NCBI RefSeq assembly: GCF_026210795.1
Contig: NC_089429.1
Coordinates: 3,348,001-3,412,000, forward strand
Length of the DNA stretch: 64,000 nucleotides
DNA from: Rhizophagus irregularis
Lineage: Eukaryota
Reading direction: 5' to 3'
Position 1 is the stretch's first letter. Each line of letters starts with the position of its first letter. The notes under the pieces were generated by a model. It searched no databases and was not told the DNA's origin. It saw nothing but the letters and a program-made list of their open reading frames with translations. Positions 3,000 to 54,750 of this stretch are shown here, piece after piece. A program made the translations under genes and the position numbers.

Positions 3000-5000
3000 A
3001 AAAAATTAAGCAAAAAACTCACCAACAATTGACATTTCGAAATTTACCTGCAAATTGTTTCAAATTCATCATTCTTATATATCTAACCAAAACTTGCGTT
3101 TAAAGAGTCAAAAAGTTACCTAAAAGAAAAAACAAAGCATTAGAAATTGTTTTGCTAAAGAAATAGTCTAAATATCCCTTCTTACTAAAATCCACATCCG
3201 AAGATATTCAAAGAATCGGTAGCTATCTAAAAAGAATTCTAACCAAAAATCTATGTTTCAGATCATGATATTTCATGTCTTCTAAAAAAAATGGAAGAAA
3301 ATGAAACGTCAGTAAACATTTTGTTAAAATAAATCAAAAAAAAACTTCTATAGCACCTATATTGAATCTTGCACGTCCAAATATTCCAAGAAACTGGCCA
3401 TATTTCCATTAATATTTCCATATGCTCTCGTTAATAAACACAAAGGCTGGGCGCCTAAAAAAAAAGAGTAAATGAAACGTTAGTAAAAAACGCTTCGTTA
3501 AATGAATTAATTGAAAGTAATAACTAGTAAATAACCTTTCTCACCAAGCTTCTGATGCGTCATCCAAATATCGAAGAACTGGCCACCTATAAATAAAAAA
3601 ATAAAACATTATTAGAAACGTTTCATTAGGAGAATTATTTATTCAAAGAAAAAAAAATGAGAAAAATGAACGTTATCTAACGTTCATTAAAAAAAAAAAT
3701 ATTTCGAAGTTACCTTCAAAATAGAGTCCAAGACCCGCACTTTGGTATTCTGGGACCTACAAAAATTAAGAACGAACATTAGTAACGTTCGTTAGATAAG
3801 CTAATGAAATCTTTCGAAGTTTTACCTTCGAAATGCCACGTTGAACTCATCCTGAAACCTGACCGAGGATACAAAAGGGAAAAAAAGTTAATGGTTTTTT
3901 TTAAATTAAAGTTTCGAAAATTTGTTTCGAAACTTACCTGGAATTCAGTATTCACGTCGGAGCCGATTTTCCTGCAAAAAAAAACAAAAAATGTTAAAAA
4001 TTAACATTTTTTTTAAAGTTTCAAATAAAATTCGAAACTTTATTTGCAAGATTCTGGTATCCAAATTGGAGCCAATTTCTATACAAAAAAAAATAATAAA
4101 AAATAATAAAAATGTTTAACGTTTTTTATTAAGTTTCGTCAAAAAGTTTCGAAAATCGAAACTTTACCTGTAGGATGGCAAATTAGAGCCGATTCCCTAC
4201 AAAAAAATATATAAAAAATATATAAAAACGTTAAAATAACGTTTTTTTATAAGTTTCATATAGTTAATTCAAAACTTACATGGCCAAATCTCAAACCCGA
4301 TTTCCTACAAAAAAAAATATAAAAAACGTTAAAATAAACGTTTTTTATTAAGTTTTGAAAAGAAACTTCAAAACTTTACCTATTGGATTCCTAATATCCA
4401 ATTCAGCGATAAAAAAAGAAAAAAATAATGTTAAAATAACGTTTTTTTAAGTTTTTTTAAGTTTCAATCGAAACTTCAAAAAAATAATAAAATATAATAA
4501 AAAACGTTAAATTAAACATTTTTTATTAATATTTTCAAAAAGTTTTGAAAAATCAAAACTTTACCTGCAAGATTCCGGTATCCAAATTGGAGCCAATTTC
4601 CCTGCAAAAAATTTAATAAAATAATAAAAAAAATGTTAAATTAAACGTTTTTTATTAATATTTTTCAAAAAGTTTCGAAAAATCGAAACTTTACCTGCGG
4701 GATTCCAGTATCCAAATTGGAGCTGATTTCCCTGCAAAAAAATTAATAAAAATAATAAAAAACGTTAAGTTAAACGTTTTTTATTAATATTTTTCAAAAA
4801 GTTTTGAAAAATCGAAACTTTACCTGCAGAATTCCGGTATCCAAATTGGAGCTGATTTCCCTGCAAAAAATTTAATAAAATATAATAAAAAACGTTAAAT
4901 TAAACGTTTTTTATTAATATTTTTCAAAAGTTTCAAAAAATTAAAACTCTACCTGTGGGATTCTGGTATCCACATTGGAGCCGATTTTCCTGCAAAAAAA
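3000..5000 (-). repeat. Tandem micro-exon/intron array (host site, left part)
   Basis: Repeated minus-strand units TTTTTGCAG|~37-nt exon|GTAAAG, period ~129 bp near 4500-5000. Confidence 0.7.
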
Positions 5001-5668
5001 GTTGTCGGGCTGGTAGTGTGTCTCGCTAACGCTCACCCCACCTCGGCCTCACGGCCTCGCAGTACCTCCTTCCCCCTCCATGGGGTAGAGAATTCCCCCA
5101 TATATACTACCGCCATGGCCACAGTGGCCATGGCTGGTCACAGTACTTTCCAACTTCTTTTTTTTACTCCATTTTTTCTTATATATAAAACTACTATGAC
5201 CACTATGACCACTATGACCAGACTACTAAAAAGTGGATAAAAACGCGAATAAAGCCAAAATCAGACAGAATATCCGGTCATAGTACTGGCCACAGTTCAA
5301 AAAACTTATGATAATACTATGGCCACCTTAGTTAGCCCCTCAGGCTCTAAAACCCGATTCAAGCTATGACCACCCTTTATCTACTTACCTGGGACACCGA
5401 ACTATGCCACCGAACTATGACCACCGAACTATGACCGCCGAACTATGACCACCGAACTATGACCGCCGAACTATGACCACCGAACTATGACCACTCTATG
5501 TCCCAAACTATGGCAGCCGAACTATGGACACCTTAGTCAGCCCCTCAGGTTCTAAAATCCGATTCAAGCTATGGACACCTGCCCCTCTATCTCACTCGAA
5601 AAAATATATTCGGCAATTGAAGATTAGGTAACTATAAATTAGTACTCGATTTGATAGAACAAAAAATG
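5001..5668 (+). repeat. Left terminal inverted repeat
   Basis: Near-identical reverse complement of 53071-53939 once the MITE is removed. Contains tandem (ACCACCGAACTATG)n at ~5395-5530 and ends at the ATG at 5666-5668. Confidence 0.95.
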
Positions 5669-6200: not shown

Positions 6201-6521
6201 CTAATCCGTCTTCCTCTTTTTTGCCTCCTTAAGGCATTTATCAATACACTGTTTACACGCGTCATCAGCCTCTAAAATTTTTTGCCCGAGTTTTTTGCAT
6301 TGCCGATTGTACGCCGTCTGATGTCTTTTAGCTGCGGTTTCTTTTTTCTTCTCCTTGGTTTTCTTTTTGATAACCCAGTCTATCCCAGTAAAAGTATTCT
6401 TATGCATCCCACAAACTACACAGTCACCATGTAAACGATAGCGGCCATTTGTGGTCATATCTTGTATTTCACTAGCAGTCTCGGTTTCCTTCTTACACTT
6501 TAGGCAGTAAAATCGTGTCAT
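6201..6521 (-). CDS. Small basic zinc-ribbon protein (DUF5679-like)
   Basis: MTRFYCLKCK...NGRYRLHGDCVVCG has two CxxC pairs and a Lys-rich tail. Real start is probably the ATG at 6521, because the longer ORF overlaps the integrase antisense. Confidence 0.65.
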   Translation of the reverse strand: MTRFYCLKCKKETETASEIQDMTTNGRYRLHGDCVVCGMHKNTFTGIDWVIKKKTKEKKKETAAKRHQTAYNRQCKKLGQKILEADDACKQCIDKCLKEAKKRKTD

Positions 6522-6565: not shown

Positions 6566-7659
6566 ATGTCGCATTTAGAGAATTACTACAAATACTACAA
6601 TCTCTCCAGAGTACCGGCACGAATTCTAAAAGGTGAGGAGCACTACAACCTATATAAAAAGCCCCTAAAAAAGAAGTTATCAGAGCATCCACGAGTAGTT
6701 GTATGGAAACCAAATGCAACACATCAGGCAGATCTTGCAGAGATGCCAGTCGACCCCAAAGGATTCCACTATTTCCTCGTAGTGGTGGAAGTCGCGGGTA
6801 AACAAGTCGATGCAGAACCCCTAAAGGATAAGACTGCAAATAGGGTTCTAAACGTGGTTCGTAAAATCTACAGAAGAAATCGTATTAAGCCACCAACACA
6901 CAGACTGGAGACAGACTCCGGATTAGAATTCACTAACGACCAGGTACGTGATTTTTTCCTGAACAGCCTAAGGGTAATGATGAGGTTCAGGCGAACCAAG
7001 GACGGGACAAAACAGCAATCATCGCTGAACGAGCCATCCAAGCAATCCAGGAACCTCTCCTAAAACGAATGGTGGCGCGGGAGTTGAAGACCGGGGTGAC
7101 GTCCGTGGAATGGTCAGAAGATTTCTGTGATGTAGTTAATAAAATAGATGAAATCTGGCAGAGAAATCCCCCAGACATTCCGACAGGGTCACCCAAAGTG
7201 TCAAAAAAGACGGAACTTCTCTCTGAAGGAACACATGTCCGAGTCAAGTTAGACGAACCTATTTCAGTACTCGGGAATAAACTCCATGGAAAATTTCGTA
7301 CAGGTGACATAAGATGGAATCCCAATATCCGTGTCATCAAAAAAATGATCCTCTCACCTGAACAGCCTCCTACGTATCTTCTTGATGGACCACACGAGCG
7401 TCTAGGTGTATCCAGATGTGCGTACACCCGAAAAGAGTTGCAGATTGTTCCAGAAAATGAACATCCCCCACCTGACTCCGTGATAAGAGGGCAACTCGAA
7501 AGATTTGTACCTGAGCGGATACTCCGGCATCGCATCAGGAAGGGTCAAGACCAGTATCTAGTCAAGTGGGAACGATACCCAGATACCGAAGCCACTTGGG
7601 AACCCGCTGACCGGTTGGAGGAGGATGTCCCTGCCTTAATCCGCAAGTTTTGGAAATAA
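6566..7659 (+). pseudogene. Polinton-type retroviral-like DDE integrase with C-terminal chromodomain (one frameshift at ~6990)
   Basis: HQADL (D), ETDSGLEF (D) and, after the shift, IIAERAIQ (E). Followed by VRVK...W...Y..KELQIV and the chromodomain ERILRHRIRKGQDQYLVKWERYPDTEATWEP. Confidence 0.9.
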
Positions 7660-7673
7660 AAAATAAATATTCC

Positions 7674-8453
7674 CTATTTTTTGTCTCCTCGATTCACATC
7701 AGAAACTATCGGGATAAAAACATTCTTCTCATTACAAGTAAGGGCGATATGTTCACGTGATTCATGGACATCATAATTGTAACGTTTCAGACACGTCCGG
7801 CTCAATCCAATCTCCTTATGCTTGTAATCGCTTAAAACCGCGAGATTCTCAGTGATTACACAATCAGGGGTTAGTTTGATTGACACACCTTTTACCATGC
7901 CGAATGTCCTACCAGAACCCGGAGCGCCAGATATGTTATGTGTAATACTCTTGTCGATATCCAACCCTAATTCTTCAGCGGCTTCCCTCTGAATAAAAGA
8001 CGCGTTAGCACAAGTGTCTGCTAAACACTGAATTGCTATCCCATTGACCTTCCCATCCAGCGCTAAAAGATCTTTAGTATTCTCCAAACGAGCTATGTCA
8101 ATATCCATCGGGTCATCTTCCCTGATATCCTCTTCTTGTTTTTCCTCAACTAGGTCTTCCGGAATCTCCGTACTTTTACGAGCAGACTTTAATTCTTCCC
8201 AAAGAATCTCGCGGAGTAATTTTCTAAAATCTGCAGACCTTAATAAACTTAATGAATCATTTTTGGTGACGGCTTTTATAAGTGTGGGCTTACTACTAGT
8301 AACCTTCACAGGAATCTTAATAGGAGTCATTTTAACTGATTTTTTTGGAACAGATTTAAGAAGTTTCAAGATACTTACACCCTTATCCGAGTTTACTTTT
8401 TTTTGTACTTCGAACCGCACAAATCCGAAAACCACCTTCCTCATCGGGAACAA
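7674..8453 (-). CDS. Retropepsin-like aspartic protease (probably the C-terminal part of a Gag-protease product)
   Basis: GKVNGIAIQCLADTCANASFIQREAAEELGL and IGLSRTCLKRY match the retropepsin pattern, with DTG changed to DTC. Overlaps the upstream ORF at an A8 run. Confidence 0.8.
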   Translation of the reverse strand: MFPMRKVVFGFVRFEVQKKVNSDKGVSILKLLKSVPKKSVKMTPIKIPVKVTSSKPTLIKAVTKNDSLSLLRSADFRKLLREILWEELKSARKSTEIPEDLVEEKQEEDIREDDPMDIDIARLENTKDLLALDGKVNGIAIQCLADTCANASFIQREAAEELGLDIDKSITHNISGAPGSGRTFGMVKGVSIKLTPDCVITENLAVLSDYKHKEIGLSRTCLKRYNYDVHESREHIALTCNEKNVFIPIVSDVNRGDKK

Positions 8454-10582
8454 TTTTCAAGTCATCAAAACTCGCGGTATTAGTATCAATATCCATAGCA
8501 TCATCATTAAGATCAAGGTTTCTCATTGCTCGGGCTAATTCCAGATCATCGCGTCTATCTTTAGCCTTCTGAAGTCTCTTTGGAAATCTTTTAGACGTCT
8601 CATATCCCATAATAAGATCAATAACATGTTGATCATCCTCACTAGTCCACTCAGGAGCATCAGGGTCACCAGGGTCATCACCAAAATTATGATCTACATA
8701 ACCATCATCCCAATCTGGCATCCCTGATGATCCTGAACAACGCGTGGCCGTGGCTTTGGCCGAACAGGTTTAATCTGTTGTCTATAGACCGGTGGTTTAC
8801 GAACTGGCTTAGATGCTTGTAATTGTTTAAATTGTGCCTGGAAATTCTTGGTAAGTTCCTCGGCTTGTGCCTTGAGCAATTCTTGTAATCGTTCTTGAGT
8901 AATAACGTCTGTCGACCTTTGTATTACAGCACCTTCGTGTGGAGTCACGGGATGAGTATAGCCAGCCAATTCCTCTTTTTTAGCCTTTTCAATACCCTGA
9001 CGCCTTTGTAATCCATAGAACATTTCGCCCTTTCATCGCTCAAGATCACTCAATCTATCGATTAATGTATTAAGAGGTGCCGCCCCGATTCTGGAAGCTT
9101 CAATAACGTTTTCTGGCAAAAGTCCTTTATAGAACTGGTCAGTAACCATAATTCGATTATATCCTACAATATCCCCAGCCCTCTCAACTCGCTTGTAGTA
9201 AGATCGAACAGGTTCACCTTGTTCCTGGTAAAGGTTACTAAATCGTATTTGAAGTCTTTCTTCCACGACGGTTGGAAAATTTGTGCGCATATGCATAAAT
9301 GCTTGATCCAGGAGAATCCCCTGTAAGACTATCGGTTGATTCTGGGCAGCAGCATTGAATGGACCTCCATGATCTCCCAACCCATTAACGGGTAGATGAG
9401 TAGGACGTCCGCCCGCACGCCTCCACTGCTCTTCAACTTTAAAATTCGTTCTAACGATATCAGCGCGTGACGGGAAAAATGCGTCTCCAATAGTTACCGC
9501 CGCATTAGCCGCAACTAGAGAATATGCATGAGCAGCAGATCCAGGCACATAAGTATTAGGATGTAGTCGTCCAGCACCAGCATTTTCAGGAACAACCAAA
9601 GCTCTGAATGCTCGGCGAGTAGCACTGGCTCCACCATTTGCAGCAGCTACTAACTGAATATTCGAGAGTTCCCAATTTTTTCCAGTAAGTTCCACATCAA
9701 ACCACCTTGCCGCTTCATTTCTCATACAGCTACGAAGAACCCCCATCGCTCGCACCCGACCAGGAGGCGCACCGGCATCGTCCAATGGATCAATACCAAC
9801 GGTATTAATATACCCTAAAAAGTTATCAATAAAAAGATTAAGATCTTCATCTTCCCGACCATGAAATATGGGGGCAGCTATACCAACGGCAGCCATATCG
9901 TATTTTGTGGATGGTTGAGAGGAGGTGGAGGAAGGTTCAATTGTCTAATCCGAAACCATTGTACTTGGATACGCAGAGCGGCTATTTGTTGAAAAAGTCG
10001 ATTCCTAAGACGTCCCAATGTCTGAATTCCAAAAAGAACCCGATTATTGGCATATACAAGCCAATTTCATGCCGCATCACGCTCGCCTATAGCTCTATTA
10101 CGTTCACCTATAGCTCTATTACGTTCTCCTCTCATAAGATTATATTGCTGCTGAAGACGACGATTAGTCGTCCGCATACCACCAAACTCACGTTCCAATT
10201 CAGCCAAATTAGCTTCTAAACTAGTAATAGTATCTTGTACGTTATTTAGCTCATCTTGTGTAAGACCTAACAAACCCGTTTGAACCTCGAGTTCATCTTG
10301 TAATTCATCACGTTCTTTTCGAGATCGATCACGTTCCGCTTTTAATATATCACGTTCTTCATATGTTTCTCTACAGCGATGAATTAATAAATTAAGAGCA
10401 TGTTTAAGACGATGGTTTGCATTTTGTACATCTCGATTAACAACCATGCGATCACTGACAGTTAAAAAATCTGTTAGATCCTTAATTACCGCAACTAATG
10501 GTATATTATTCATATCACACAAATCCCTAGGAGGCGGTCCAGTAGGCTCTGAAGGAGTATAAATTGCAATTGGTGTCGACAT
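8383..10582 (-). pseudogene. Gag-like polyprotein: N-terminal coiled coil, Ty3/Gypsy-type capsid domain, low-complexity tail
   Basis: PIFHGREDED..FIDNF, AARWF, LYQEQGEPVRSYYKRV (major-homology-region-like) and QFYKGL. Four ORFs join through in-frame TGA stops (10067, 9033) and single frameshifts (~9900, ~8725). Confidence 0.75.
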
Positions 10583-10613
10583 CGTATTTAAACTAAGATA
10601 GAATAAAATTCAA

Positions 10614-11650
10614 ATGGATCTTTATGTATACAATTTGGACGAGTACACAACCGACTCGAGACAGGATAATGAGTTTGCCCCATCATGGCCTTTCCGTCTT
10701 GCCGTAGCAGGAAGTTCTGACTCAGGTAAGACAACTATGATTATTAATTTGTTAATGGGAGACAAGAAGGCAAAGGAGGATGGCGAAAGGTACATATTAT
10801 GTGATGCGGTAATTCTAGTTGGCAGATACCTCGATGAACCGAAGTGGGCAGTCGTACGTGATTTTTCAAAGAAGAAGAAATTCCGTTTACCGCAGTATCC
10901 CATAGTGAGATTCCAAATGTTAAGGACTTCAACTCCACCCAGGCTACTGTGGTAATCTTCGAGGATTTGATGGATGCGCCTAAAAAAACCCAGGATCTCA
11001 TCACTGGATTTTTTACATACGGGCGTCACAAAAATATCTCGTGTATCTATGTGGCCCAAAGATTCTTTACCATTCCCAAGGCTATTCGTGAAAATGTGAA
11101 TTATATTTCCCTACATGGAGGTCACGGAAGTTTGACCGATACTAAGAGGATCATCCGCCAGTATACAGAAGAATCGGAGTTACTAGCTCCAGTAATCGAT
11201 GACCTTACTCTACAACGCGAATTTATAGTATTTGATCTTAGAAGATCCAAGAGCGATCCGTTATCTATTCGGGTTAGATGGGATACTAGTCTCAGTTCGA
11301 TCACCGATCAATCTCAGTTCGATCCTAGTTCGATCTCAGTTCAATCCCCGTTCGATCCGAGTTTGAACCCAGTTCAATCAAAGTTTAGTTCCTATGGCCA
11401 GAAAGCCGTAGCTGAAGCAAAAAAGTCCTCCCAGCTAATCGAGTTTGCTCGGAAATATCCGTCGCCTAAAGAGAGAAAACACCTTCTCGTATCTGGTGTT
11501 ATAGCTAAGAACGCAGATACCTGGATTAAGTACGTCTTTCGGGAAGCCTACGGACTATCTGGTAAGACCTTGGGATCAGACTTCCAAAACTTCTTGCGAA
11601 AGTACGGGATAGGACCACGAAGACTGAAATTCCAAAACCTGAGACCGTAA
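10614..11650 (+). pseudogene. A32/FtsK-HerA-type DNA packaging ATPase (frameshift at T-run ~10865)
   Basis: Walker A AGSSDSGKT, Walker B VIFEDL and the A32 signature GRHKNISCIYVAQRFFTIPKAIRENVNY. Confidence 0.9.
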
Positions 11651-11815
11651 AGGAGTTATTCTCCCGATATGAAGTCCTGAAGTCTAGTCACCCTTTGGAT
11701 AATAAAAAATTAATAGAAGGCATCGGGGTCCTTTTACAGATCTTTTCTAAGGGTCATATGGACCGTCGAGCATTACGAGTAGGGATCAATAGTATTTTGT
11801 AAGAATCTGGCTGCT

Positions 11816-12367
11816 TTAGCAACCCATCTCGTGAAGTTCTTCCGCAGAAGCCCTAAGAATCATGGCGCTTTTTTTACGTCCTTCGAAGTCAATCCGTAGC
11901 ATCCTAGCTTTTAACCCAATAGCTCCTGAGGCTCGAGAAGCAAAGTTCTTAGTCATCGGATTTCTTACATGACTTACATAGTTTTCATAGAATGTAGTAA
12001 AGGGTTCGTCAATACCATCTGGGTATGTATTCCGTAAGAACTGATATAAGGCAATTTCCCCACTGTCACATCCAATGGCTATAAGCTGTTCAAGAAGCCA
12101 CTTCCTAGTATCCTCGTATGAATCTCCGTCCATAATTTTCATATCCAGTCTTTGTGTGAATAATTGCGTAAAATCCGCATTACTTGCCCGACGGATAATC
12201 TGGACCAACTTATCCCTGGCAAGTCCCAAGGCTTGTAAAGGTTCACTCTCGTCGCCAATCTTCTTTATAATCTGTCTATACAACACGCTGGATAATCCTC
12301 TATATGCCGCTTTTGCAGAGAATACTTCACAGTTCTGACACTGGTTTATTACGATTGATGTTGACAT
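11816..12367 (-). CDS. Hypothetical protein of the Polinton-like element
   Basis: Intact 183-aa ORF in the gene-dense arm; no confident motif. Confidence 0.6.
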   Translation of the reverse strand: MSTSIVINQCQNCEVFSAKAAYRGLSSVLYRQIIKKIGDESEPLQALGLARDKLVQIIRRASNADFTQLFTQRLDMKIMDGDSYEDTRKWLLEQLIAIGCDSGEIALYQFLRNTYPDGIDEPFTTFYENYVSHVRNPMTKNFASRASGAIGLKARMLRIDFEGRKKSAMILRASAEELHEMGC

Positions 12368-12527: not shown

Positions 12528-13112
12528 TTAGGAAGCGCAGTCCTTGCACAACTTGTCCGTTAAGTCACTTGGGCTCACAGGCATGAGACATTCCCTACAC
12601 AACTCAATATTAAGCTCTGCAAGTCTCGGGGCATGGTCCTCCAAAGTTCGTGGACGACCGGAAGGACCGGAGGAAGGTGTCCCGTTAGTCGTATCTTGCT
12701 GTAAGATAAAATCATCATATTCATCTTGGTCAGCCTGAATAGCGGCCCTGATTTGTTGTATATCATTAAAAGTTAACCGCTGGCCATCAAGATTTTCCTC
12801 ATTATAGCGCGTTTCATTGATGATTTCCTCTATAAGCTCCTCCTCTTCAGAATGAACAAGGTAGTAGTCCTCAACTACCTCGTAGTCACTCTCAACCAGT
12901 CTATGATACGTTCTAGTACCGTGTTGAATATAGCGTCCTGTATCTGTATTTAAATATACAGGTTGTTCCTGGGGTGGAGGCGGTACGGTTTGTCTACGGA
13001 CAAGCCTTCCATCGATATAATCATGGGATTCCATAACTATTCGATTAAAGGTATCTCCACCAACACGGATTGGACGTCCGATTATAGGATTAGTTATATA
13101 AGGGTATGACAT
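12528..13112 (-). CDS. Protein with two NPxTGRxI-type repeats (2-cysteine-adaptor-like) and a C-terminal C4 zinc motif
   Basis: TNPIIGRPIRVGGDTFNRI and LNTDTGRYIQHGTRTYHRL; CRECL...LCKDC; AATTGAAGAT upstream. Confidence 0.65.
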   Translation of the reverse strand: MSYPYITNPIIGRPIRVGGDTFNRIVMESHDYIDGRLVRRQTVPPPPQEQPVYLNTDTGRYIQHGTRTYHRLVESDYEVVEDYYLVHSEEEELIEEIINETRYNEENLDGQRLTFNDIQQIRAAIQADQDEYDDFILQQDTTNGTPSSGPSGRPRTLEDHAPRLAELNIELCRECLMPVSPSDLTDKLCKDCAS

Positions 13113-16734: not shown

Positions 16735-17565
16735 TAAACAATGACAAGAAAAGTTCGCGAATTTTCCTTGGTACTGCTTAATTTTTTTAATTTTTAAGCA
16801 GTATCAAGAAAATTCGCGAACTTTTCTTGTCATTGTTTAATCGATTGCTTTGAAAAAAACAATGGTATACTTTGAACAATCCAAGAAAAGTTCGCGCGAA
16901 TTTTTCTTGCCATTGTTTAATCAATTGCTTTAAAAAAAAAAACAATGGTATACTTTGAATAATAGCAAGAAGAAAAGTTCGAGCGAATTTTTCTTGCCAT
17001 TGTTTAATCGATTGCTTTAAATAAACAATGATATACTTCGAATAATAGCAAGAAAAGTTCGCGCGAATTTTACTTGCTATTGTTTAATCAATTGCTTTAA
17101 AAAAAACAATGGTATGCTTCGAACAATAGCAAGAAAAGTTCGAGCGAATTTTTCTTGCCATTGTTTAATCAATTGCTTTAAAAAAACAATGATATACTTT
17201 GAACAATAGCAAGAAAAGTTCGCGCGAATTTTTCTTGTCATTGTTTAATCGATTGCTTTAAAAAAAAACAATGGTATGCTTCGAACAATAGCAAGAAAAG
17301 TTCGAGAGAATTTTTCTTGCCATTGTTTAATCAATTGCTTTAAAAAAAAACAATGGTATGCTTTGAACAATAGCAAGAAAAGTTCGCGCGAATTTTTCTT
17401 GCCATTGTTTAATCAATTGCTTTAAAAAAAAAATGCTACTTTGAACAATGGCAAGAAAAGTTCGTGCGAACTTTTCTTGCCATTGTTTAATCAATTACTT
17501 TAAAAAAAACAATGATATACTTTGAACAATGGCAAGAAAAGTTCGCGCGAATTTTTCTTGATACC
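16735..17565. repeat. ~81-bp palindrome-containing tandem array 1
   Basis: Unit core AACAATGGCAAGAAAAGTTCGCGCGAATTTTTCTTGCCATTGTT is an inverted repeat. Confidence 0.9.
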
Positions 17566-18148
17566 GCTTAATCTTTAAATTAAAACCTTAGTAAATTACT
17601 TTACAGAAATTTCAGTTAGAGTTACGGTCGATATAAAATCAATGTCGATTCTATATTGATCAGACGTCACCATGATGTCGTGATGAAAATCGATTCGACA
17701 TCTTTAAGTTGAACTTAAATACGTTGATTCGATGTCTATTCGTTTACTAATCGTAGTGATATCGATTCGACATCGAATAACTACGATTAGTAAACGAATA
17801 GACATCGAATAATAACATCGCACTTACATTGTTTCAATATTAAGTTAATGTCGAAAAATGTTTATTTTTCCCGCCTTGTGTACATTAAGTAAACATCGAA
17901 ATGACATCGAACAGGTGTCTATTTGACGTCACACAAACATTATGCGAATCGAGATGACATCGGACGAGCGTTGATTCGACGTCAATCAAACATTCGACAT
18001 CAGGACACGATGGCTTAGTGTATTTTATTCTAAAAGAAATAAAACGAAAAAAAAACCTAAAAGGAAGTTTATTGAGACTTTTTTACTCATTTCATATATA
18101 CCAGCATTGTATGTAATGTGATTTTCATTTATTAATTAAGGTTTAATA

Positions 18149-24950: not shown

Positions 24951-25549
24951 ATTATTTAATTATTTCCAGGAAGACAGTTTAAATAGCAAAAGAATGTATT
25001 GTATTGAGCGTATGTATTGTTCGAAAGTTGTTATTAATTTTTAATGGCACAAAGAATATATATATACATAATTTGTTTAAATCATGATGTAATAGGTTTC
25101 CTTTTAAGCATCTCCGTTTCTGGGGCAGTTTTTAAGCAGCCCCAAATTAATGGCACAAAAGAAGCAGCCCCGTTTTCTGGGCGCGGTTTTTAAGCAGCCC
25201 CAAATTAATGGCACAAAAGAAGCAGCCCCGTTTTCTGGGCGCGGTTTTTAAGCAGCCCCGTTTTCTGGGCACGGTTTCTAATTCCCCGATCCTACTGTAA
25301 ACTGTATGTATAAATAAATTTCAAAAATAAATTTCACGTGATCATATAGAACCGCGGTATCTTTGGCTTACAGTAATTGGCATAACATTTGTTCTGGGTA
25401 TTGATTGCAGATATTACGGAGTTTAAAGTTCATATATCAGATATTCGCAATTCCGCAATAATGCAATTAATTGTGGTATCACAGTACTGCAGATTAATTG
25501 CGCTTTGGCTATATTTCGTTTTAAAGGGCTTCGGTTTTTGCAAAAAATA

Positions 25550-26590
25550 TACTTTGAACAATGGCAAGAAAAATTCGAGCGAATTTTTCTTGCCATTGTT
25601 TAATCAATTGCTTTAAAAAAAACAATGCTATACTTCGAACAATAGCAAGAAAAGTTCGAGCCGCGAACTTTTCTTGCCATTGTTTAATCAATTGCTTTAA
25701 AAAAAAAATGCTACTTTGAAAAATGGCAAGAAAAGTTCGAGCGAATTTTTCTTGCCATTGTTTAATCAATTGCTTTAAAAAAAACAATAATAGACTTGAG
25801 TTAAACAATGGCAAGAAATGTTCGAGCGAATTTTTCTTGCCATTGTTTAATCAATTACTTTGAAAAAAAACAATGGTATACTTTGAACAATAGCAAGAAA
25901 AGTTCGAGCGAATTTTTCTTACCATTGTTTAATCAATTGCTTTAAATAAACAATGATATACTTTGAACAATAGCAAGAAAAGTTCGCGCGAATTTTTCTT
26001 GCCATTATTTAATCAATTGCTTTTAAAAAAAAACAATGATATACTTTGAACAATAGCAAGAAAAGTTCGAGCGAATTTTTCTTTCCATTGTTTAATTAAT
26101 TGCTTTAAAAAAAACAATAATAGACTTGAGTTAAACAATGGCAAGAAATATTCGAACTAATTTTTCTTGCCATTGTTTAATCAATTACTTTGAAAAAAAA
26201 CAATGGTATACTTTGAACAATAGCAAGAAAAGTTCGAGCGAATTTTTCTTACCATTGTTTAATCAATTGCTTTAAATAAACAATGATATACTTTGAACAA
26301 TAGCAAGAAAAGTTCGCGCGAATTTTTCTTGCCATTATTTAATCAATTGCTTTTAAAAAAAAACAATGATATACTTTGAACAATAGCAAGAAAGTTCGAG
26401 CGAATTTTTCTTGCCATTGTTTAATCAATTGCTTTAAAAAAAACAATGGTATACTTCGAACAATGGCAAGAAAAGTTCGAGCGAATTTTTCTTGATACTG
26501 CTTAATTTTTAAATTAAAACATTAGTACTAAATTAGCTAATTAGAATTAAGCAGTATCAAGAAAAATTCGCGAGAATATTCCTTGATACT
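25550..26590. repeat. ~81-bp palindrome-containing tandem array 2
   Basis: Same unit and orientation as 16735-17565. Confidence 0.9.
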
Positions 26591-26989
26591 GCTTAATCTT
26601 TAAATTAAAATCTTAATACTAATTTATTAAATTTGATTTATAATTGAGCTTTAAAAATTAAACAGTATAACAGTATTATCAATCGGACTTTGAACTTAAA
26701 AATTAAACAGTATTAATGAAAATTCTTGTGAATTTTTCTTTACATCAGTAAATTTTTGGGTAGTGCATACTAGTGTCGAAGTATACATTATAAACATATG
26801 GGTTTAAAATGTAGTATTTAATATAAAGTTCATAAAGTTGTAAAATTTATAATAAAAATAATATAAAAAAATACCGTATCTATAGAAAATACGCTATAAC
26901 GTATGAAATTTTTTATAGAGGCTGGTGATTATTTGCGAACATTACAAATTTAAAACATTTTTTATTTTAGTTTATAAAAAAAAGTAAAT

Positions 26990-32782: not shown

Positions 32783-33259
32783 TAACTGCAAGCTGATAAT
32801 AAAATAACATTTTTTCATCTTTATAAGAATAAAGTTTTCGTAAATTTTTATTTATTTTGATGATCGGGAATGTCAATTTACTTTTAACTTTATAAAGGCC
32901 TAAATTTAAGGAAAATTAAGTTTCAATCGCTAATATTTTCGAGTTCAATAAATCTTTATATTGGTTTCATAATAAATAAACGAGAATTTCAAATTTTTTT
33001 TTGTCGTAAAATAATAATTTTTTTGACGTAATTGAACCAGTTGCGATAAACATACACGTGATCGGTACTACGGTTAAATGTTATCGATTTTATACATATA
33101 GGTATACGTTACGGCGGGTACACAGATATAAATATGTAATCATTAAATTTGCGTGTCTGATAATGGTAAAAATTTTGGTTTTTGGCCAAATTTCGTTAAA
33201 TTAATTGAGATAATGGATATCTTGTTAACAAATTTATGTTTTATTTATTCAATAAATAT

Positions 33260-34290
33260 TTCTTTGTCATTGTTTAATCAATTGCTTTAAAAATAAACAA
33301 TGGTATACTTTGAACAATGGCAAGAAAAGTTCGCGCGAACTTTTCTTGCCATTGTTTAATCAATTGCTTTAAAAAAAAACAATGATATACTTTGAACAAT
33401 AGCAAGAAGAAAAGTTCGCGCGAACTTTTCTTGCCATTGTTTAATCAATTGCTTTAAAAAAAAACAATGATATACTTTGAACAATAGCAAGAAGAAAAGT
33501 TCAAGCGAATTTTTCTTACCATTGTTTAATCAATTGCTTTAAAAAAAACAATGGTATACTTTGAACAATAGCAAGAAAAGTTCGCGAATTTTTCTTGTCA
33601 TTGTTTAATCGATTGCTTTAAAAAAAAACAATGGTATGCTTCGAACAATAGCAAGAAAAGTTCGAGCGAATTTTTCTTGCCATTGTTTAATCAATTGCTT
33701 TAAAAAAAAACAATGGTATGCTTCGAACAATAGCAAGAAAAGTTCGCGCGAATTTTTCTTGCCATTGTTTAATCAATTGCTTTAAAAAAAAAAAATAATA
33801 GACTTGAGTTAAACAATGGCAAGAAATGTTCGAGCGAATTTTTCTTGCCATTGTTTAATCAATTACTTTGAAAAAAAAAACAATGGTATACTTTGAACAA
33901 TGGCAAGAAAAGTTCGAGCGAAATTTTCTTGCCATTGTTTAATCAATTGCTTTAAAAATAAACAATGATATACTTCGAACAATGGCAAGAAAAATTCGCG
34001 CGAATTTTTCTTGCCATTGTTTAATCGATTGCTTTAAAAAAAAACAATAGACTTGAGTTAAACAATGGCAAGAAATGTTCGAGCGAATTTTTCTTGCCAT
34101 TGTTTAATCAATTACTTTGAAAAAAAAACAATTGTATACTTTGAACAATGGCAAGAAAATTTCGAGCGAACTTTTCTTGCCATTGTTTAATCAATTGCTT
34201 TAAAAATAAACAATTGTATACTTTGAACAATGGCAAGAAAAATTCGCTCAAAATTTTCTTACCATTGTTTAATCAATTGCTTTAAATAAA
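33260..34290. repeat. ~81-bp palindrome-containing tandem array 3
   Basis: Same unit as arrays 1 and 2. Confidence 0.9.
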
Positions 34291-34899
34291 CATATTAATA
34301 TCAGTTACGAGATCCGATTCACTATCACTAACAATTACAGGAGGAACACAATGTTTAACATGTTGAGTATATCCAGATTTGGAGGAAAATGTTCTTGAGC
34401 AATATGGGCATTCCTGGGGTATCATTTTAAGGTATTTGTATAGGATTTGAATTATTTACTTGCTATTGCCTTTGGTAAAAATGACCGTATTTATACGCAA
34501 ATTTTTATTTCCTTCAGTAAAAATGGCCATATTTACATATAAAATTATTTATCATACGGCCGTGAATCTCATTAAGATCAGCCGATCCACAAAAATTTGT
34601 TACTTTGATCTTTTTTTTTGCACGTAATTAATAAAAAATATGTTTTTTCACCACAAAATACGTTTTTATTTTATTGTTTTTATTTTATTGAAGTTTTCTT
34701 TAAAAATCTTTGGTCCCGGATCAGCCGAATTGAATAAAATTTTACTAGAATTGGATAAATGATCGGCCGATAAAAGCTGATCATATTTCGATTATTTCCA
34801 GAGATCGGCACATGAAGTAAAAAGTCAAATTTGCCTTAAATTTATTATTGAATTGAAAATTTTATTTGGTTTGTTACAAAAAATTTGCAAATTTTTATA

Positions 34900-45954: not shown

Positions 45955-46649
45955 GGTAAACATAGCATGAGCTTGAATTTTATTAATTAATGCCGAAGTA
46001 ACTTTAGAGAAACACAGAGTGATCTAAAAAGTACCGCAACAAGTGCAGAACTAATAGAAAAACAAAGAACAAATAATCTTCCGAAATTACAAATAAGAAA
46101 AGCTAAGATTAAAAACCCCACCCTCTCTATATAAATAACTACGGCTACTCCCCCCAAATATATCTCAAAATGAGTAAAGTCGACTATGCTATACGTAACC
46201 CATCCAGCGCCGTACCCACTCCTAGAATCGGTAAAGAACCTCCGAGCTACCATTAGCACTATCAAAAACGCCTAAAATTCAATTTCCCCTATTTGACTAC
46301 ATACTATGGATAACAAACCTATTTCACAAAGACCTCCGGGAACTTTTTAGTGTCGTGCAGTCCAGCCGATGGGGAACTTTTTAGTGTCGTGCAATCCCTG
46401 AAGGGACACCCACCTCATTTCGAATGATCCCAAACGGAGGACACCCACCTCATTGCGAACAATCCATCGACCTAAGATCTACCTAGATAAGTCAATCCAA
46501 TGATAGTCCATCATGTGACCACCTTGATCGGCATACTACAAAAACTGCGGTACCCAACCTGTCACCCCCCTTATCACCCCAATGATGATCGATTTTGAAA
46601 ATTGTAACACCAAGCCACCATGACGATCAAATTTTCCAGTATCCCCCCA
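45955..46649 (-). mobile_element. Short (~695 bp) non-autonomous or truncated non-LTR retroelement at the same target site as the LINE
   Basis: Bounded by ATCAGTCCTTGTCAA (45940-45954, 46650-46664). Its end GGTAAACATAGCAT resembles the LINE end GGCAAATATGGCAT, and both carry a TCCCCC..CAA.ATATAT motif ~190 bp in. Confidence 0.65.
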
Positions 46650-47144
46650 ATCAGTCCTTGTCAAAAAATGCTAGGATGCCTGATGATGAGTCATCAGTTC
46701 TTGTCGCAAAACACGAGGATACCTGATGAATAAGTTATTGGATTATTGGCGCAAAAGCATTCGTTGAAAAACTATGGATTATATTACAGAAAATGTGAAC
46801 GGAGTTCATGTCACGTGATACCCTGAACAAATGTGTAGAGTGTCGCGTGACTTCATGCGGGTACGTAGATCATTTCCTTTTTGGGCGATACCCGTTCCAC
46901 AAAAATCGATTTGGTAAGAATGCGTTTGGAACCTTGTGTAACATAAATTTCCTTTTTCGGTAATTCGGGATTACGCGGTAATGCCGGCCGGATCTAAAAA
47001 ATATGACTCTGCAGGGTAATTCCTACGAAAGTCAAGTACAAAATGCTTACTCCTGTTGAAATTCAATCATTCCACTTCCAGTCCAATCTCCAAGGATCGC
47101 CTCCCCATCTGCTCACTTAATGCATACTCTATGGTTTCCCTCTC

Positions 47145-48726: not shown

Positions 48727-50578
48727 TCATGTCCAGATAACCTTGTTCGCATTTTTCACATGGCAGTATCCCACGGTTTCAAACTTGAAAGTCTTTAGAG
48801 TCGTATCTGCATTCTCTGAACAAGTGAAAAGCGCGGGGCTATCTGGCTGCTCTTCTAAAATAAATCCATCCGTATGGATACGTCGTACTTTATCCTTGTA
48901 TGGTTGAATTGCCTCAGATGTGATTTTGCGACCACGTGCTAATAAGAATGGGGCGATCCTGGGATACTCACCTTTGAAGGGATTACCCGGGTTTGTGAAC
49001 TGGAATCGCCACTGGTCAGATCCTACTGGTATGATAGAGTCGAGTGTATGGCCCTCTGGAAATGTAAATGGGTCTGTTTGATCTGCGGTGAGTGTCTTGT
49101 AATTACGCTTCCTCTGGCATAATGCTCCCCATAATGTGTTGAGGACTCGCTTTGCCACGCGGCCAGCTACGCCACCTTGGTTTTTAATTTTCAAGAGGAA
49201 GTGTACATACTCACCAAATATTACAGTTCCAGGGATTCTTGCTTCTCTATCATATATCAATGCATTTGGCTTCCCATCCTGTATTAACTGTATATTGAGA
49301 CCAAGTTTTTTTGCTCGTTGTAAGTCGATGAATGTATAGATTCCCCTTTTATTCTGTCGGAAGAGAATATTATTCCCACTTACCTTAGCATGGAATAATC
49401 CATACAAGGCATAACCCCTGTGGTCAACAAAGTCATTAAGTGTCTGGAATTTACCCCGTCTGATTGGAAAGTTCGCGTTCGATTGTTGGATACTCGGGTA
49501 TAAACTTGTTGCATCGTACTGTCTTCCATAGCCCTTCCACTCGTTATCTGCCCAGATTAATCCTCCCATCATTGCATCACTTAACCACTCTGCTTCTATC
49601 GGGTCAAGAGGATCATTGGCTGGAATCCCTACACTTAATCGTTCGAATAACCAGAGAGCCGTTCTTTTGTAAGACCAGTTATGGTATGATAAGTCGATTC
49701 CTAAACTGAACTTCTTTGTAGTTTGTAAGAAGATATCCCGCTCCTCGTGGATTTTCTGATATGCTTCTTCAAGAGTTTCATATACTCCAGTCTTACGGTT
49801 TTTCTCGACGGGGATGAAAGAACTCTTGGAATTCTTAGTCTTTTGAAACTGCGCAATTGTGCAAGACTTAACTGTTTTGCCGTTGTATATTGTGACTACA
49901 TTATTGGTCCCATCTTCATAGTATACAATGGGTAAATTACGCTTTCTATCTATTTTACTGGGGTGGAGTCTTCCGGGATTTAACGCGATGGAGTAATGGC
50001 CTTCTGATAGGATGAGAGTCGCACGTCTATCGGACTTACTCTTAGAGATTCGGGTAATGTCCCCCACAATATTAATTGCGAGACTTCCTGCAAGTTGTTC
50101 AACCTTGTCCATGCATGAAACTGGGATGGGAGCATCGCGATTGAGACCTAATGCCTTTTTGATATACTCGGGCTTTTCGATTGACTTTGGCATTTTAGAG
50201 AATGTGCCGTAGATATTTTTCAGGCATTCATACAGGCAATCATTTAGCTTCCCCGTTGCAACCTCCTGCAACCGGTGGGGCATCTACATAAATTATGAAT
50301 CGTTCAAAATAATCAGGGTCTGCGTCATCCGGTAGTTGTGCTTCGTCGTAATGATCCAAGAGTGAGAAAAGGCTAGCTGGTTGGTTTCCTGATGTCCAAC
50401 CACCGGGTTTCCAGTTTTCATAGGGAAGTAAAATCTGGAATTTACAATTTGGATATTGGGATTGGAGTCGCTGACCGAGTCTTGCTATTGCTCCTCTGGA
50501 AAAGCGGACGCCAGAAAACTGGAGTTCCTTGATGTCAGGTCGTGTTGGTAAGGCGCGTGCAATTTTTGAATGAGTCAT
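48727..50578 (-). pseudogene. Compact protein-primed-type family B DNA polymerase (frameshift at G-run ~50252)
   Basis: MMGG...YDATSLYPS (motif A), AKRVLNTLWGAL (motif B), RIHTDGF (motif C variant). The upstream ORF joins as GGCNG-KLNDCLYECL. Confidence 0.85.
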
Positions 50579-51164: not shown

Positions 51165-53073
51165 CTATCGGTGTCTTTCATGACAAGCCCAGTGCGCTCG
51201 AGTGCCTTCCTTTGGTTCAGGATTCCGGTCGACTTCTGGTTCTGTGTCGGGTTCTGGGATAAGTTGCTCTTCGGGAGCCGGTTCTGGGTCAGGCTTAGTG
51301 ACAGATGCAGAAGATTCTGCGGGAGACTCGGATTGTTGTTCAGGAGTTGGGTCCATGGTTGTAGAATCCGAGTCTGATAATAAGTCATCTAAGATGTCAT
51401 AGTTATCTGGCTCGGGGGCAGACGGTTTTTCAGGAACTGGGTTTGCGGTTGTAGAATCCGAGTCTGATAACAAGTCGTCTAAGACGTCGTAGTTATCTGG
51501 CTCAGGGGTAGACGGTTTTTCTTCCCTTGACTCTTGTGGGCGTTTTTTTAAGTGATCAGGCTTGGGTGGAAGCGGTGGAGGAGTCTTGCGAATTACAGGT
51601 GCAGGTTTTTCCTCGACAGGTTCGGGTTTTTTCTCGGCGGGTTTCTCGGCAACTAACTCTACTTCCTCTACTGGTGCTTTTTGTACGTCTTGTACATCTT
51701 GGATTACTTTACTAAAATTCTCCGTGATTTTTGCTTTATCTAGTATGTAATAGTTTATTCGGGCACCTGAACGTCTTGGGCGGGTTTTAGGAATGAATTG
51801 TTTAATCTCCATGCCAAACTTATTATCACTAAGTGTTTTGTTTTCGCCCTTCTCACTGCACCAATTCTGATAAGTGCTATAGAAATTTGTACACGAGATT
51901 TCAAGTGTGTCGCAATTGTCGGGCCACATCATTTCAAGGTAATATTGTATAAAACGCTGGGGATTTGGGATACTTGCTTCAATTAACTCCCGTTTCATTT
52001 GAGTATCAGGAATAGATCGGGGATTGAAGCTAGTTAAGTCTCGGCTAAGTAGATAGGACATGAAGGAACTGGCTGTATCCGGATTTTCTAATACTTTTAC
52101 GAGAGAACCGAAGTATTCTCTATTGCCTTTATATTTGGCTGAAACATTGAGAGCTACAAATCTTTCATCTCCCATTTCTATGCGGATTGGCATAGCATGA
52201 TTACTGAGGATCATGTAGCCAGCAAAGTCATCAATAACCTTTACATCTATCCCCTTTTCCTCAATAGAGATGTAAGACTCGGTGATTAAACTCTTGAGTC
52301 GGTTGTTTGCCGTGCCGTTCCTTGCCTGACATATCGCATTCATTGAGGATAATAAGTTTTTTGGCACGAACAGCCGCATTGAACCTTCCCATTACATCTT
52401 CAAGACGGGTAGTGGAGAGGAAGTTTTCACGGCCGAGAATACGTTCTCCGATAAAATCGGTTAAGATATTCTTACCACATCTGGGGGGACTGCGCATGAT
52501 AATTGCTGTACCGGGTTTTTTGTCTGGATTTTGAATTAGAAATGCGAGCCAGTTGAGGATGTATATGGTTAATTGCTTGTCCTCTGCACACCATACCTCA
52601 TGAACGTGTCGGATGATTGGATTAACTAGATTTGGTTTAATGCGCTCAGCGGGTTGGGCCCTGAAACCTAGGAAGAGATTGAAGAATTCAGGATTATACT
52701 TTGGTGCGTTTGGGGGATAAGGCATGAAGTTTACATCTGTATAACAGATCTTTGCGATTGAAGCTTGGAGAAGAAGATCCTTTAATTTTGTGGATGTGGT
52801 CGCGTCACTGTCTTCTCCGGTATCTGACCGAATAATTACCTTGTGCTTAGTAGAAATCCCCTTGAGATCTGCGGTGAACTCGAAGTATATGCTTCCATTG
52901 TAAGCCTTCTTTTTTCTAATCCACATGCTAAATTTTGTGGTGATGAAAGCCACAGAAGCCGAGATTGCTGAATTGACGCTTTCTTTCGTGTGTGTACCTA
53001 CACATTTTTTAAGAAGGTCATCGTAGAAGAAACGGTTGTTAGGGTTAAAGATTGCTGGAACTTGAGCGGCCAT
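51165..53073 (-). pseudogene. D5-like/SF3 helicase with winged-helix C-terminus and acidic Pro-rich tail (frameshift ~52312)
   Basis: FFNLFLGF, YILNWLAFLIQNP, SPPRCGKN (Walker A), LIILNE (Walker B), LKSLITE...MILSNH (motif C), FYSTYQNWC...SDNKFG. No primase domain is visible. Confidence 0.88.
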
Positions 53074-53939
53074 TTTTTGTTCTATCAAATCGAGTACTAA
53101 TTTATAGTTACCTAATCTTCAATTGCCGAATATATTTTTTCGAGTGAGATAGAGGGGCAGGTGTCCATAGCTTGAATCGGGTTTTAGAGTCTGAGGGGCT
53201 GACTAAGGTGTCCATAGTTCGGCTGCCATAGTTTGGGACATAGAGCGGTCATAGTTCGGTGGCTATAGCTCGGTGGCATGGTTCGCTGGCCAATGGGCGG
53301 CGGTCATAGTTCGGTGGTCATAGTTCGGTGGCATAGTTCGGTGTCCCAGGTAAGTAGATAAAGGGTGGTCATAGCTTGAATCAGGTTTTGGAGCCTGAGG
53401 GGCTAACTAAGGTGGCCATAGTATTATCATAAGTTTTTTGAACTGCGGCCAGTACTATGACCGGATATTCTGTCTGATTTTGGCTTTATTCGCGTTTTTA
53501 TCCACTTTTTAGTAGTCTGGTCATAGTGGTCATAGTGGTCATAGTAGTTTTATATATAAGAAAAAATGGAGTAAAAAAAAGAAGTTGGAAAGTACTGTGA
53601 CCAGCCATGGCCACTGTGGCCATGGCGGTAGTATATATCACAGGTCGAAATGCTAAAAATCGGCAAAAAAAATGGCGCGAAAAGCAGTGGCTATTTTTGG
53701 CTATTTTTGGCTATTTTTGGCTGTTTTTGGCTATTTACGAATTAACCTATACTATTTGTAAATAGTTTATACAAATTTGCGAATAGTTTATGCGATTTGC
53801 GCCATTTTTTTTGCCTATTTTTGATCATTTGACGTGTGTATGGAGAATTCTCTACCCCATGGAGGGGGGAAGGAGGTACTGCGAGGCCGTGAGGCCGAGG
53901 TGGGGTGAGCGTAGCGAGACACACTACCAGCCCGACGAC
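53071..53939 (-). repeat. Right terminal inverted repeat (contains a 200-bp MITE)
   Basis: Reverse complement of 5001-5668. Ends at the helicase ATG (53073-53071). Confidence 0.95.
53639..53838. mobile_element. 200-bp MITE (CACA termini, CMC-like) in the right TIR
   Basis: ~40-bp imperfect TIR CACAGGTCGAAATG...AAAAAAAATGGCGC; TSD TAT; absent from the left TIR. Confidence 0.9.
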
Positions 53940-54750
53940 AAAAATAATAAAATATAATAAAAAACGTTAAATTAAACGTTTTTTATTAATTTTTGTCAAA
54001 AAGTTTCGAAAAATCAAAACTTTACGGTAACCCTACAATAATATTAAAAAAAAAAACGTTTTTAATATTAAAAAATGTTTTTTAAAGTTTCGAAACTTTT
54101 GTTTTAAAACTTACCTTTGGAAATCGATATCTAAGTAGGAGCCGATTTCCTATATAAAATATAAAAAAAACGTTAGAAAACGTTTTTTTTATAAAGTTTC
54201 AAATTTTTTTTTCGAAACTTATCTGGGACATTGGTATCCACGCCAGAACCGATCTCCTTACAATAATATAAAAAAAAAAAATGTTTTTTCGTTAAAAAAC
54301 ATTTTTTTTAAATAGTTTCAAAGAAATTCTTCAAAACTTACCTTTGGAATTCAGTATCCAAGTAGGAGCCGATTTCCTATATAAAAGTATAAAAAAAACG
54401 TTAAAAAACGTTTTTTTTATAAAGTTTCAAATTTTTTTTTCGAAACTTACCTTTGGAATTCGGTATCCAAGTAGGAGCTGATTTCCTATATAAAAGTATA
54501 AAAAAAACATTAGAAAACGTTTTTTTTATAAAGTTTCAAATTTTTTTTTCAAAACTTACCTTTGGAATTCGGTATCCAAGTAAGAGCTGATTTCCTATAT
54601 AAAAGTGTAAAAAAAACATTAGAAAACATTTTTTTTATAAAGTTTCGAATTTTTTTTTTGAAACTTACCTTTGGAATTCAGTATCCAAGTAGGAGCCGAT
54701 TTCCTATATAAAAGTATAAAAAAAAATGTTAGAAAACGTTTTTTAAAGTA
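53940..54750 (-). repeat. Tandem micro-exon/intron array (host site, right part)
   Basis: Same family and orientation as 3000-5000; ~109-bp period, ~35-nt exons. Confidence 0.7.

Follow-up and report, generated by a model that had tools for sequence, protein, structure and literature searches.

Polintons (Mavericks) are the described systems closest to the locus reported here, with which they share terminal inverted repeats (TIRs), a protein-primed DNA polymerase B (pPolB), an rve integrase (INT) with a chromodomain, an A32 ATPase and a length of about 16 kb without nested insertions. We take Polinton-1_GI of Glomus intraradices to be the name of the known Polinton in the fungus concerned, Rhizophagus irregularis. 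Polintons have been recorded in this fungus (PMC7805220, PMC11952901, PMC11296320), and the Glomus Polinton is described as one in which no major capsid protein (MCP) was found (PMC7805220). We analyzed a stretch of 64,000 nt of R. irregularis DNA (NC_089429.1, positions 3,348,001 to 3,412,000; hereafter the window, whose own numbering is used throughout), in which a Polinton-type element is bounded by TIRs at 5001-5668 and 53071-53939. Unlike Polintons, the element has no recognizable jelly-roll major capsid open reading frame (ORF) and no cysteine-protease match, and instead holds a block of coiled-coil, Gag capsid (CA) and retropepsin (PR) genes between INT and ATPase. This block is real, conserved and not a nested long terminal repeat (LTR) element, and its carrier is a Polinton variant.

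Other described systems share parts of this layout. With pMVRE group 1, mavirus-related elements surveyed in 2026 (PMC13215967), the element has pPolB, DUF5906 helicase, DUF5679, chromodomain and rve in common, and judged by this gene content it probably belongs there. The supplement of that study lists complete Rhizophagus and Diversispora elements and retropepsin together with pPolB 56 times in group 1; in the available 75 of 111 retropepsin rows of supplement 5, retropepsin_like is paired with pPolB 57 times, with rve 48 times, with RT_LTR five times and with MCP once. In contrast to what we describe, the main text regards the fungal lineage as devoid of structural proteins and likely a plasmid, and mentions neither gag nor protease nor retropepsin. 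The gene combination has probably been drawn once before, as the MELD 'related element' of Starrett et al. 2021, for which the legend of Fig. 5 lists Matrix/Capsid/NC/Pro (PMC8502044). However, in the available text that element appears in the legend only, with its host unnamed there, is not discussed in section 3.4 and comes without a test of conservation, frameshift or function; moreover, it lists a nucleocapsid (NC), whereas the Rhizophagus clade has no zinc knuckle. Mavirus-type virophages share pPolB, rve integrase and superfamily 3 (SF3) helicase, the difference being that no jelly-roll major capsid ORF was found here. LTR retrotransposons (Metaviridae) and retroviral gag-pro resemble the block in the two-domain CA, the retropepsin, the position of PR in the -1 frame behind Gag and the upstream coiled coil. 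They differ from it in that the block has no LTR, reverse transcriptase (RT), RNase H, cis integrase or zinc knuckle, encodes the coiled coil in an ORF of its own, carries a CA insertion of about 120 aa and uses an A9 tract without stimulatory structure. Domesticated Gag proteins (Arc, PEG10, PNMA2) likewise keep Gag or Gag-PR without RT and match structurally with Z 7-9, but there the captor is the host genome, whereas here it is another mobile element. Rhizophagus A32 ATPases from fragmented assemblies are noted in a 2026 preprint (10.64898/2026.06.19.733378), whose available text does not mention gag, and the available parts of PMC11161782, PMC8321522 and 10.1101/2025.04.19.649669 hold nothing on the block. 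Nowhere in the literature searched did we find the block discussed as a conserved capsid module, the A9 site or the transcription signals given below reported, or a retrovirus-type capsid paired with a DNA-packaging motor described for any DNA virus; the original element descriptions (2006, 2007), Repbase and Fig. 5/Table S1 of Starrett et al. may say more.

Within the window, INT converges on PR, followed on the minus strand by Gag and the coiled-coil gene, which in turn diverges from the ATPase. The INT stop codon ends at 7659 (+) and the PR stop codon begins at 7674 (-), so that 14 nt lie between them, as an earlier note on this DNA had stated. The minus-strand frames (coiled coil 10582-9878, Gag 9896 to about 8390, PR open from 8456) tile 7674-10582 without a gap and leave space neither for LTRs nor for a relic of RT or RNase H, both of which the note had held to be absent. 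It had likewise rightly described the integrase (rve plus chromodomain, 6566..7659, +) as Polinton-type and located on the opposite strand. At the other end, the reported 31-nt gap between the ATG at 10582 (-) and the ATPase ATG at 10614 (+) is confirmed, whereas 10582 is the start of the coiled-coil ORF and not of Gag. Hence, it is the coiled-coil gene and not the capsid gene that lies head-to-head with the ATPase; CA starts further in, at 9896. The note mentions neither the A9 frameshift site nor the absence of a zinc knuckle.

Since the Gag alignment was too diverse for a metagenome scan, related loci were fetched from soil metagenomes with the ATPase as bait. This yielded 127 matched stretches, of which 52 were confirmed (43-89% identity), and because only the ATPase was used for retrieval the loci are unbiased with respect to Gag. 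Nine of the 52 have less than 100 nt upstream; the remaining 43 were scored. Hereby, the coiled-coil gene lies head-to-head with the ATPase in 41 of the 43 loci, 24 of them within and 17 outside the training set of the profile. Gag is reached in 22 loci. Upstream DNA of 1150 nt or more is available for 22 loci, and of these 20 reach Gag and two stop inside the coiled-coil gene. PR is present in all ten long loci, which represent five lineages and not ten independent cases, and a convergent INT follows in eight of these ten; in L011 the contig ends 30 nt beyond PR. INT directly beside the ATPase, which the earlier note had named as counter-evidence, occurs in none of the 43 loci. The block is thus kept in the same place and order across lineages at 35-50% CA identity, and there is very little doubt that coiled coil, Gag and PR constitute a fixed, conserved module of the element family. 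Scans of IMG/VR with CA, pPolB, ATPase alignment and distant Gag queries returned no locus, and neither did a GTDB scan.

The spacers on both sides of the block are short throughout. The head-to-head spacer measures 31-76 nt in 31/31 cases listed (30 loci and the window), and the tail-to-tail spacer between INT and PR 24-49 nt in eight relatives as compared to 14 nt in the window. Across the loci, the short length is kept and the sequence has diverged. The recurrence of gene order and short spacers in independent lineages with diverged spacer sequence argues that the layout is not an accident of one copy. As a set, 19 head-to-head spacers show a tendency towards dyad symmetry (combined by Fisher, p 0.006); singly, 3/19 reach p<0.05 or so, and the window spacer has p 0.57. 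Such a spacer would be compatible with co-regulation of the coiled-coil/Gag side and the ATPase. At the junction of coiled coil and CA, the two frames overlap by 19 nt in the window; among 18 unbroken loci the overlap is 16-19 nt in 13, and a gap of 24-73 nt precedes CA in five, the coiled-coil ORF being broken in three further loci.

To estimate selection we used simple substitution counting for pairs with dS under 1.2 and at least four changes. For Gag and PR, dN/dS is mostly 0.2-0.4 (CA 0.18-0.40 in nine mid-distance pairs, PR 0.26-0.49 in 16 pairs), with exceptions among close and saturated CA pairs that are detailed below. Values for the ATPase are mostly 0.02-0.4, and ATPase and INT lie lower than CA and PR. 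Intact Gag ORFs are present in several lineages. These data bear on the possibility that the block is a nested LTR retrotransposon which decayed in one ancestral copy and was then passively amplified. Its genes do derive from LTR elements, and the window copy is broken and holds nested insertions elsewhere. Nevertheless, the conserved place and order, the intact ORFs with dN/dS below 1, the conserved A9 tract and the failure to find LTR, RT or an empty site render this origin of the present block highly improbable: no LTR-like direct repeat was detected in the window or in the 3/3 relatives scanned. The earlier note was therefore correct in rejecting a nested LTR retrotransposon.

According to its structural model, Gag folds as a two-domain retroviral CA. 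All 20 matches with Z of at least 8 in the VIA comparison are retroviral or retroelement CA and extend over both domains, the best being HIV-1 CA (Z 9.9, rmsd 5.6, 165 residues); the C-terminal domain of Rous sarcoma virus CA matches with Z 9.7 and rmsd 1.9 over 71 residues, and Atlas gives 0.92 for CA. The N-terminal domain contains the insertion of about 120 aa. In Pfam, the whole 287-aa CA ORF has no match, and its C-terminal part matches Retrotrans_gag (E 0.002), as do 26 of 70 aligned relatives. A comparison of CA with BFVD gave no match at E<=0.001, and a PDB sequence search returned nothing useful. The 99 longer CA homologues are without exception models from R. irregularis, with identities of up to 100% in the matching region; 92 of them end at the protease C-terminus, none exceeds 921 aa, and 147 representatives do not exceed 893 aa. 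None of the 99 carries RT, and closest Gag homologues in complete LTR elements, the other kind of counter-evidence named in the earlier note, were not encountered. Distant CA homologues occur in Entrophospora, Acaulospora, Diversispora and soil metagenomes (20 representatives). A CCHC knuckle is found in 0/22 Gag ORFs (loci and window, some partial) and 0/99 models, and in 7/146 representatives, all of which belong to a distant clade whose coiled coil and CA form one continuous frame. In 6/6 cases, the tail of Gag is net acidic.

The distant clade occurs in the same fungi (P0277, P0281, P0283, P0275, P0265, P0284, P0329) and combines the fused coiled coil and CA with a protease and often the CCHC knuckle, with no RT observed; it may represent the donor or a sister Polinton family. 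No long relatives (952-2715 aa) of the knuckle-bearing distant Gag were found, which is weak evidence.

In the PR frame, the catalytic D(S/T) is kept in 11/11 cases and the frame stops right after the domain in 11/11, with no RT or RNase H behind the protease in any of the 11. In 10/10 loci from five lineages, the Gag end is a tract of exactly nine A's and PR occupies the -1 frame. Other runs of nine or more A's are absent from 75.9 kb of coding DNA. The main contig of runs X3 and X5 has the nine-A (nine-T) allele, which accounts for roughly half of the depth in X1 and X6, as compared to 5% in X2. Of 12 full-length Gag representatives, 11 terminate in KKK/KKR. Because the tract consists of exactly nine A's, falls in three codon registers and is followed by no stimulatory RNA structure (z -1.1 to +0.7 in 11), polymerase slippage would explain it no less well than the classical -1 ribosomal frameshift with a stimulatory element.

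Walker A, Walker B and GRH motifs are conserved in the ATPase family. Pox_A32 is matched with E 3e-09 by the ATPase of L014, and the top Foldseek matches are A32 and IVa2 ATPases (E 2e-09). Judged by size and Pfam, a jelly-roll major capsid was not detected: the element contains no unassigned ORF >240 aa in the window or in L014, L027 and L038, and there is no Pfam match. The 1.2-kb gap at 45960-47140 holds no ORF of 100 aa and shrinks to 132 nt in L014 and L027. Neither penton nor adenain-type cysteine protease gave a Pfam match; ORFs of 130-240 aa remain without family, and Atlas returned no confident family for the ORF at 11816-12367.

We propose, with a probability of roughly 0.55, that the block forms the particle of the element in place of jelly-roll capsid and cysteine protease, with the ATPase loading the linear DNA genome. 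That the Gag block forms particles at all is likely; whether these hold element DNA through the ATPase is close to an even bet. The proposal is based on the position of the block, selection, the frameshift, the lost knuckle and the rule, known from other Polintons, that loss of the MCP is accompanied by loss of protease and ATPase (PMC4028283), the ATPase being kept under selection here. Hereby, gag-pro would have been captured in ancient times from an LTR retrotransposon and cut ahead of RT. A9 slippage would then yield much Gag and little Gag-PR, PR would mature the shell, the predicted packaging ATPase would load the linear DNA genome into it, and the chromo-integrase would insert the element copy. 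With the knuckle lost, loading of DNA by a motor could have taken the place of co-assembly with RNA. By estimate, a shell for 13.5-16.5 kb of dsDNA would require an inner radius of about 20 nm or more. Taken further, the element could be a double-stranded DNA virus with a retroviral capsid, i.e. a Polinton/virophage-type replicon with Gag-protease replacing jelly-roll shell and cysteine protease, A9 slippage and transcription from Asfarviridae-type signals. We rate DNA-containing CA particles in this sense at slightly less than even odds, and more tentatively still consider a virophage-like parasite that depends on giant viruses of mycorrhizal fungi.

A number of observations weigh against this proposal. 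Close CA pairs show dN/dS near or above 1 (L013/L041 0.82; L022/L031 1.9 on 14 changes), and the ratio climbs to 0.3-1.1 in saturated CA pairs. CA and ATPase distances show no significant correlation in Mantel tests (n 14: r 0.09, p 0.24; n 21: r 0.13, p 0.09); the two agree in shallow clades only, so that joint descent is unsupported. P0227 is 48% identical over the CA-linker and 73-74% over Gag end and PR, and L001 has an ATPase at 82-94% but a CA at 44%; by these sequence comparisons, CA is swapped between close relatives. The two most distant ATPases, L048 and L051 (2/43), face another gene, and in L024 the neighbor of PR is a gene other than an integrase. In Foldseek, the E-values of CA are no better than 0.011 and thus weak, and the available 75 of 111 rows of supplement 5 of PMC13215967 contain no Pox_A32-retropepsin row. 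Contig depth in run X1 is uneven (67k, 94k, 141k), and in one poly(A) RNA run (X24, about 24% read) depth over 8344-9778 is zero, so that the Gag family looks silent in that run. Finally, we know of no portal for a motor in a closed CA lattice, A32 ATPases are known with jelly-roll shells, and particle, packaging and ATPase-capsid contact are so far predictions from sequence.

Two other functions have to be considered. The Gag shell might not be filled by the ATPase and might enclose RNA or a DNA-protein complex by co-assembly, serving as an intracellular shield or as a carrier between nuclei of the coenocytic hyphae, with the ATPase employed in another DNA-handling step. It would agree with the usual co-assembly of CA lattices around their cargo and with an exchange of CA that does not involve the ATPase, and frameshift and protease suit any Gag particle. 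This alternative appears unlikely, however, given that the RNA-binding knuckle is absent and the Gag tail net acidic, that packaged RNA could not be copied back without RT and that the ATPase faces the coiled coil in nearly all loci scored. Alternatively, the element could be a capsid-less integrating plasmid or a transpoviron-like passenger of giant viruses, with Gag-PR as accessory cargo, e.g. a decoy that spoils the capsids of host LTR retrotransposons, or a source of protease. In line with this notion, the fungal group-1 lineage is called likely plasmids in section 7 of PMC13215967, a transpoviron also bears Asfarviridae-like signals (PMC11788076), and CA is swapped and evolves faster than INT and ATPase. 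It leaves unexplained, however, why a frameshift setting the Gag/Gag-PR ratio is conserved, both CA domains are intact and a packaging ATPase is retained. Moreover, F-box cargo genes vary in position between relatives, unlike the Gag block, which stays in place. We regard it as improbable to the same degree and keep the DNA-loaded Gag particle as the preferred interpretation.

Candidate transcription signals surround these genes. Of 81 gene starts, which stem from related genes, 19 have ATTGAA at a distance of 20-60 nt ahead of the ATG, as compared to a mean of 2.7 and a maximum of 11 after shuffling and 0 in antisense; ATPase and coiled coil are preceded by ATTAAA or ATTAGA. T6 follows 26 of 37 stops (shuffle 3.6; A6 7; other window DNA 19%), and T7 is absent from the coding strand (39 kb). 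T-richness is also a feature of fungal 3' ends. The PR side of the 14-nt spacer is an exact match to the pacmanvirus 3' motif WWTTTATTTTTTAWW, and AATTGA and TATTTTTT are further motifs among the candidate signals. Of the known signals, AAAATTGA serves mimivirus, pacmanvirus and African swine fever virus (ASFV) as early promoter (PMC11788076), the ASFV polymerase terminates at polyT (PMC10965686), and R. irregularis holds an Asfarviridae-like region with RNA polymerase genes (PMC10640383). As host signals are uncontrolled and gene starts are not independent, transcription of the element by a giant-virus polymerase is a tentative suggestion from these motifs. A sigma-70 promoter scan was set aside as not applicable to a fungus. 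In 5/11 cases ATTGAA also occurs 31-45 nt ahead of the CA start (window 9941-9946, inside the coiled-coil ORF; L001, L010, L024, L030), which suggests that CA has a promoter of its own.

Table 1. Positions of the element's features in the window (strand given as + or -; nt, nucleotides)
Feature	Positions	Strand	Remarks
Left TIR	5001..5668		arms 5029-5076, 5100-5461 and 5463-5668 are 96-100% complementary to 53071-53912
DUF5679 zinc-ribbon gene	6201..6521	-	Pfam E 5e-18; head-to-head with integrase; same place in L013, L014, L016, L037
Polinton-type integrase	6566..7659	+	rve E 2e-07, C-terminal Chromo E 3e-18; frameshifted here
14-nt spacer, convergent stops	7660..7673		T6 run on each strand, likely two-way terminator
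Retropepsin frame	7674..8456	-	basic N-terminal spacer; Asp_protease_2 E 3.5e-08; RT does not follow
Gag C-terminal half	8383..9032	-	helical linker, acidic stretch, without zinc knuckle; broken in window copy
A-tract at Gag end	8397..8404	-	A8 here, A9 in relatives and most copies; likely Gag-to-PR frameshift site
Two-domain retroviral-type CA	9033..9896	-	AlphaFold2 pLDDT 89, structure matches
Coiled-coil ORF	9878..10582	-	separate frame overlapping CA start; matrix-like by position; premature stop 10067
31-nt head-to-head spacer	10583..10613		likely two-way promoter; WTTRAA-type motif about 27-32 nt before each ATG
A32/FtsK-HerA-type packaging ATPase	10614..11799	+	frameshifted here
Protein-primed DNA polymerase B	48727..50578	-	DNA_pol_B_2 E 5e-06; frameshifted here
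DUF5906 / D5-like SF3 helicase	51165..53073	-	domain match
Right TIR	53071..53939		repeat comparison with left arms

The element comprises an F-box-like ORF, DUF5679, the chromo-integrase, the block, the A32 ATPase, small ORFs, pPolB and the DUF5906/D5 helicase (Table 1), and is about 16 kb long once a nested LINE is subtracted. Its TIRs measure about 670-870 nt with matched arms at 96-100%. Both ends (5001, 53939) are flanked by AAAAA, but the site is an A-rich 129-bp satellite, and a target-site duplication is therefore ambiguous. The insertion site consists of a 109-130 bp AT-rich satellite (window 3939-5000 and 53940-54836), which would fit targeting of heterochromatin by the chromodomain. 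In relatives, the integrase is one ORF of 363-364 aa; it gave no HHCC-finger match. pPolB is intact (625-628 aa) in L014, L027 and L038. Repeats resembling the 2-cysteine adaptor domain, which is known from large DNA viruses, are present in the ORF at 12528-13112 and its relatives (in L038 with Pfam 2C_adapt E 0.002).

The window copy itself is decayed. Premature stop codons interrupt it at 10067 and 9033, an indel of 1 nt lies near 8720, the tract at 8397-8404 is A8 instead of A9, and INT, ATPase, pPolB and helicase are frameshifted. Other copies lack the 10067 stop (10069 A>G in about 99% of depth, 3 runs) and the extra base near 8720, and their protein models read through the 9033 stop. In run X2, contig depth is level over INT (4427), Gag-PR (4519) and ATPase (4306), a weak sign in favor of the proposal above. 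The gene model P0012, running antisense from the ATPase into the coiled coil, represents the same junction in another Rhizophagus copy. Introns in public models that join coiled coil to CA and Gag to PR have boundaries that differ by model and are read as probable bridges of the gene caller over frame changes.

A LINE with endonuclease, RT and RNase H is nested in the Polinton at about 13200-45940, with a repeat of about 19 nt at each end and minus-strand ORFs from 45813 to 39206 and from 14351 to 13464. It is interrupted by about 25 kb with a Transposase_21 ORF and satellite arrays, and its 3' end reaches a depth of about 300 per strand in run X24. An 80-86 bp unit with the internal palindrome CAAGAAAAGTTCGCGCGAACTTTTCTTG forms three arrays (16774-17615, 25535-26754, 33245-34338). 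Among the metagenome loci, L048 (367-549) and L051 (148-834) hold a helical ORF with repeated motifs that we presume to be IQ-like, and both contigs end before the next gene. In L021 (2151-5681) and also in L022, the ATPase/coiled-coil/Gag lineage lies beside a 1176-aa polymerase with an endonuclease VII domain and not beside the 625-aa type, which may reflect a block on two replicons or a nested insertion. In L005 (1226-3129), the ATPase gene gives way to the ORF of an ABC transporter of bacterial type, and the contig is probably a chimeric assembly.

In conclusion, the conserved block offers an answer to a stated question, i.e. the missing capsid of the Glomus/Rhizophagus Polintons. If a Gag shell indeed packages DNA, a swap of capsids would have taken place between reverse-transcribing elements and DNA viruses of the jelly-roll type, with a packaging motor working on a CA lattice in a chimera across two virus realms; DNA-filled CA particles, if shown, would be categorically new. 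By its transcription signals, the element may be linked to the Asfarviridae-like viruses known from R. irregularis (PMC10640383). Mavericks have expanded in Glomerales (PMC11952901), so that the way in which they spread matters for how the genomes of mycorrhizal plant symbionts change.

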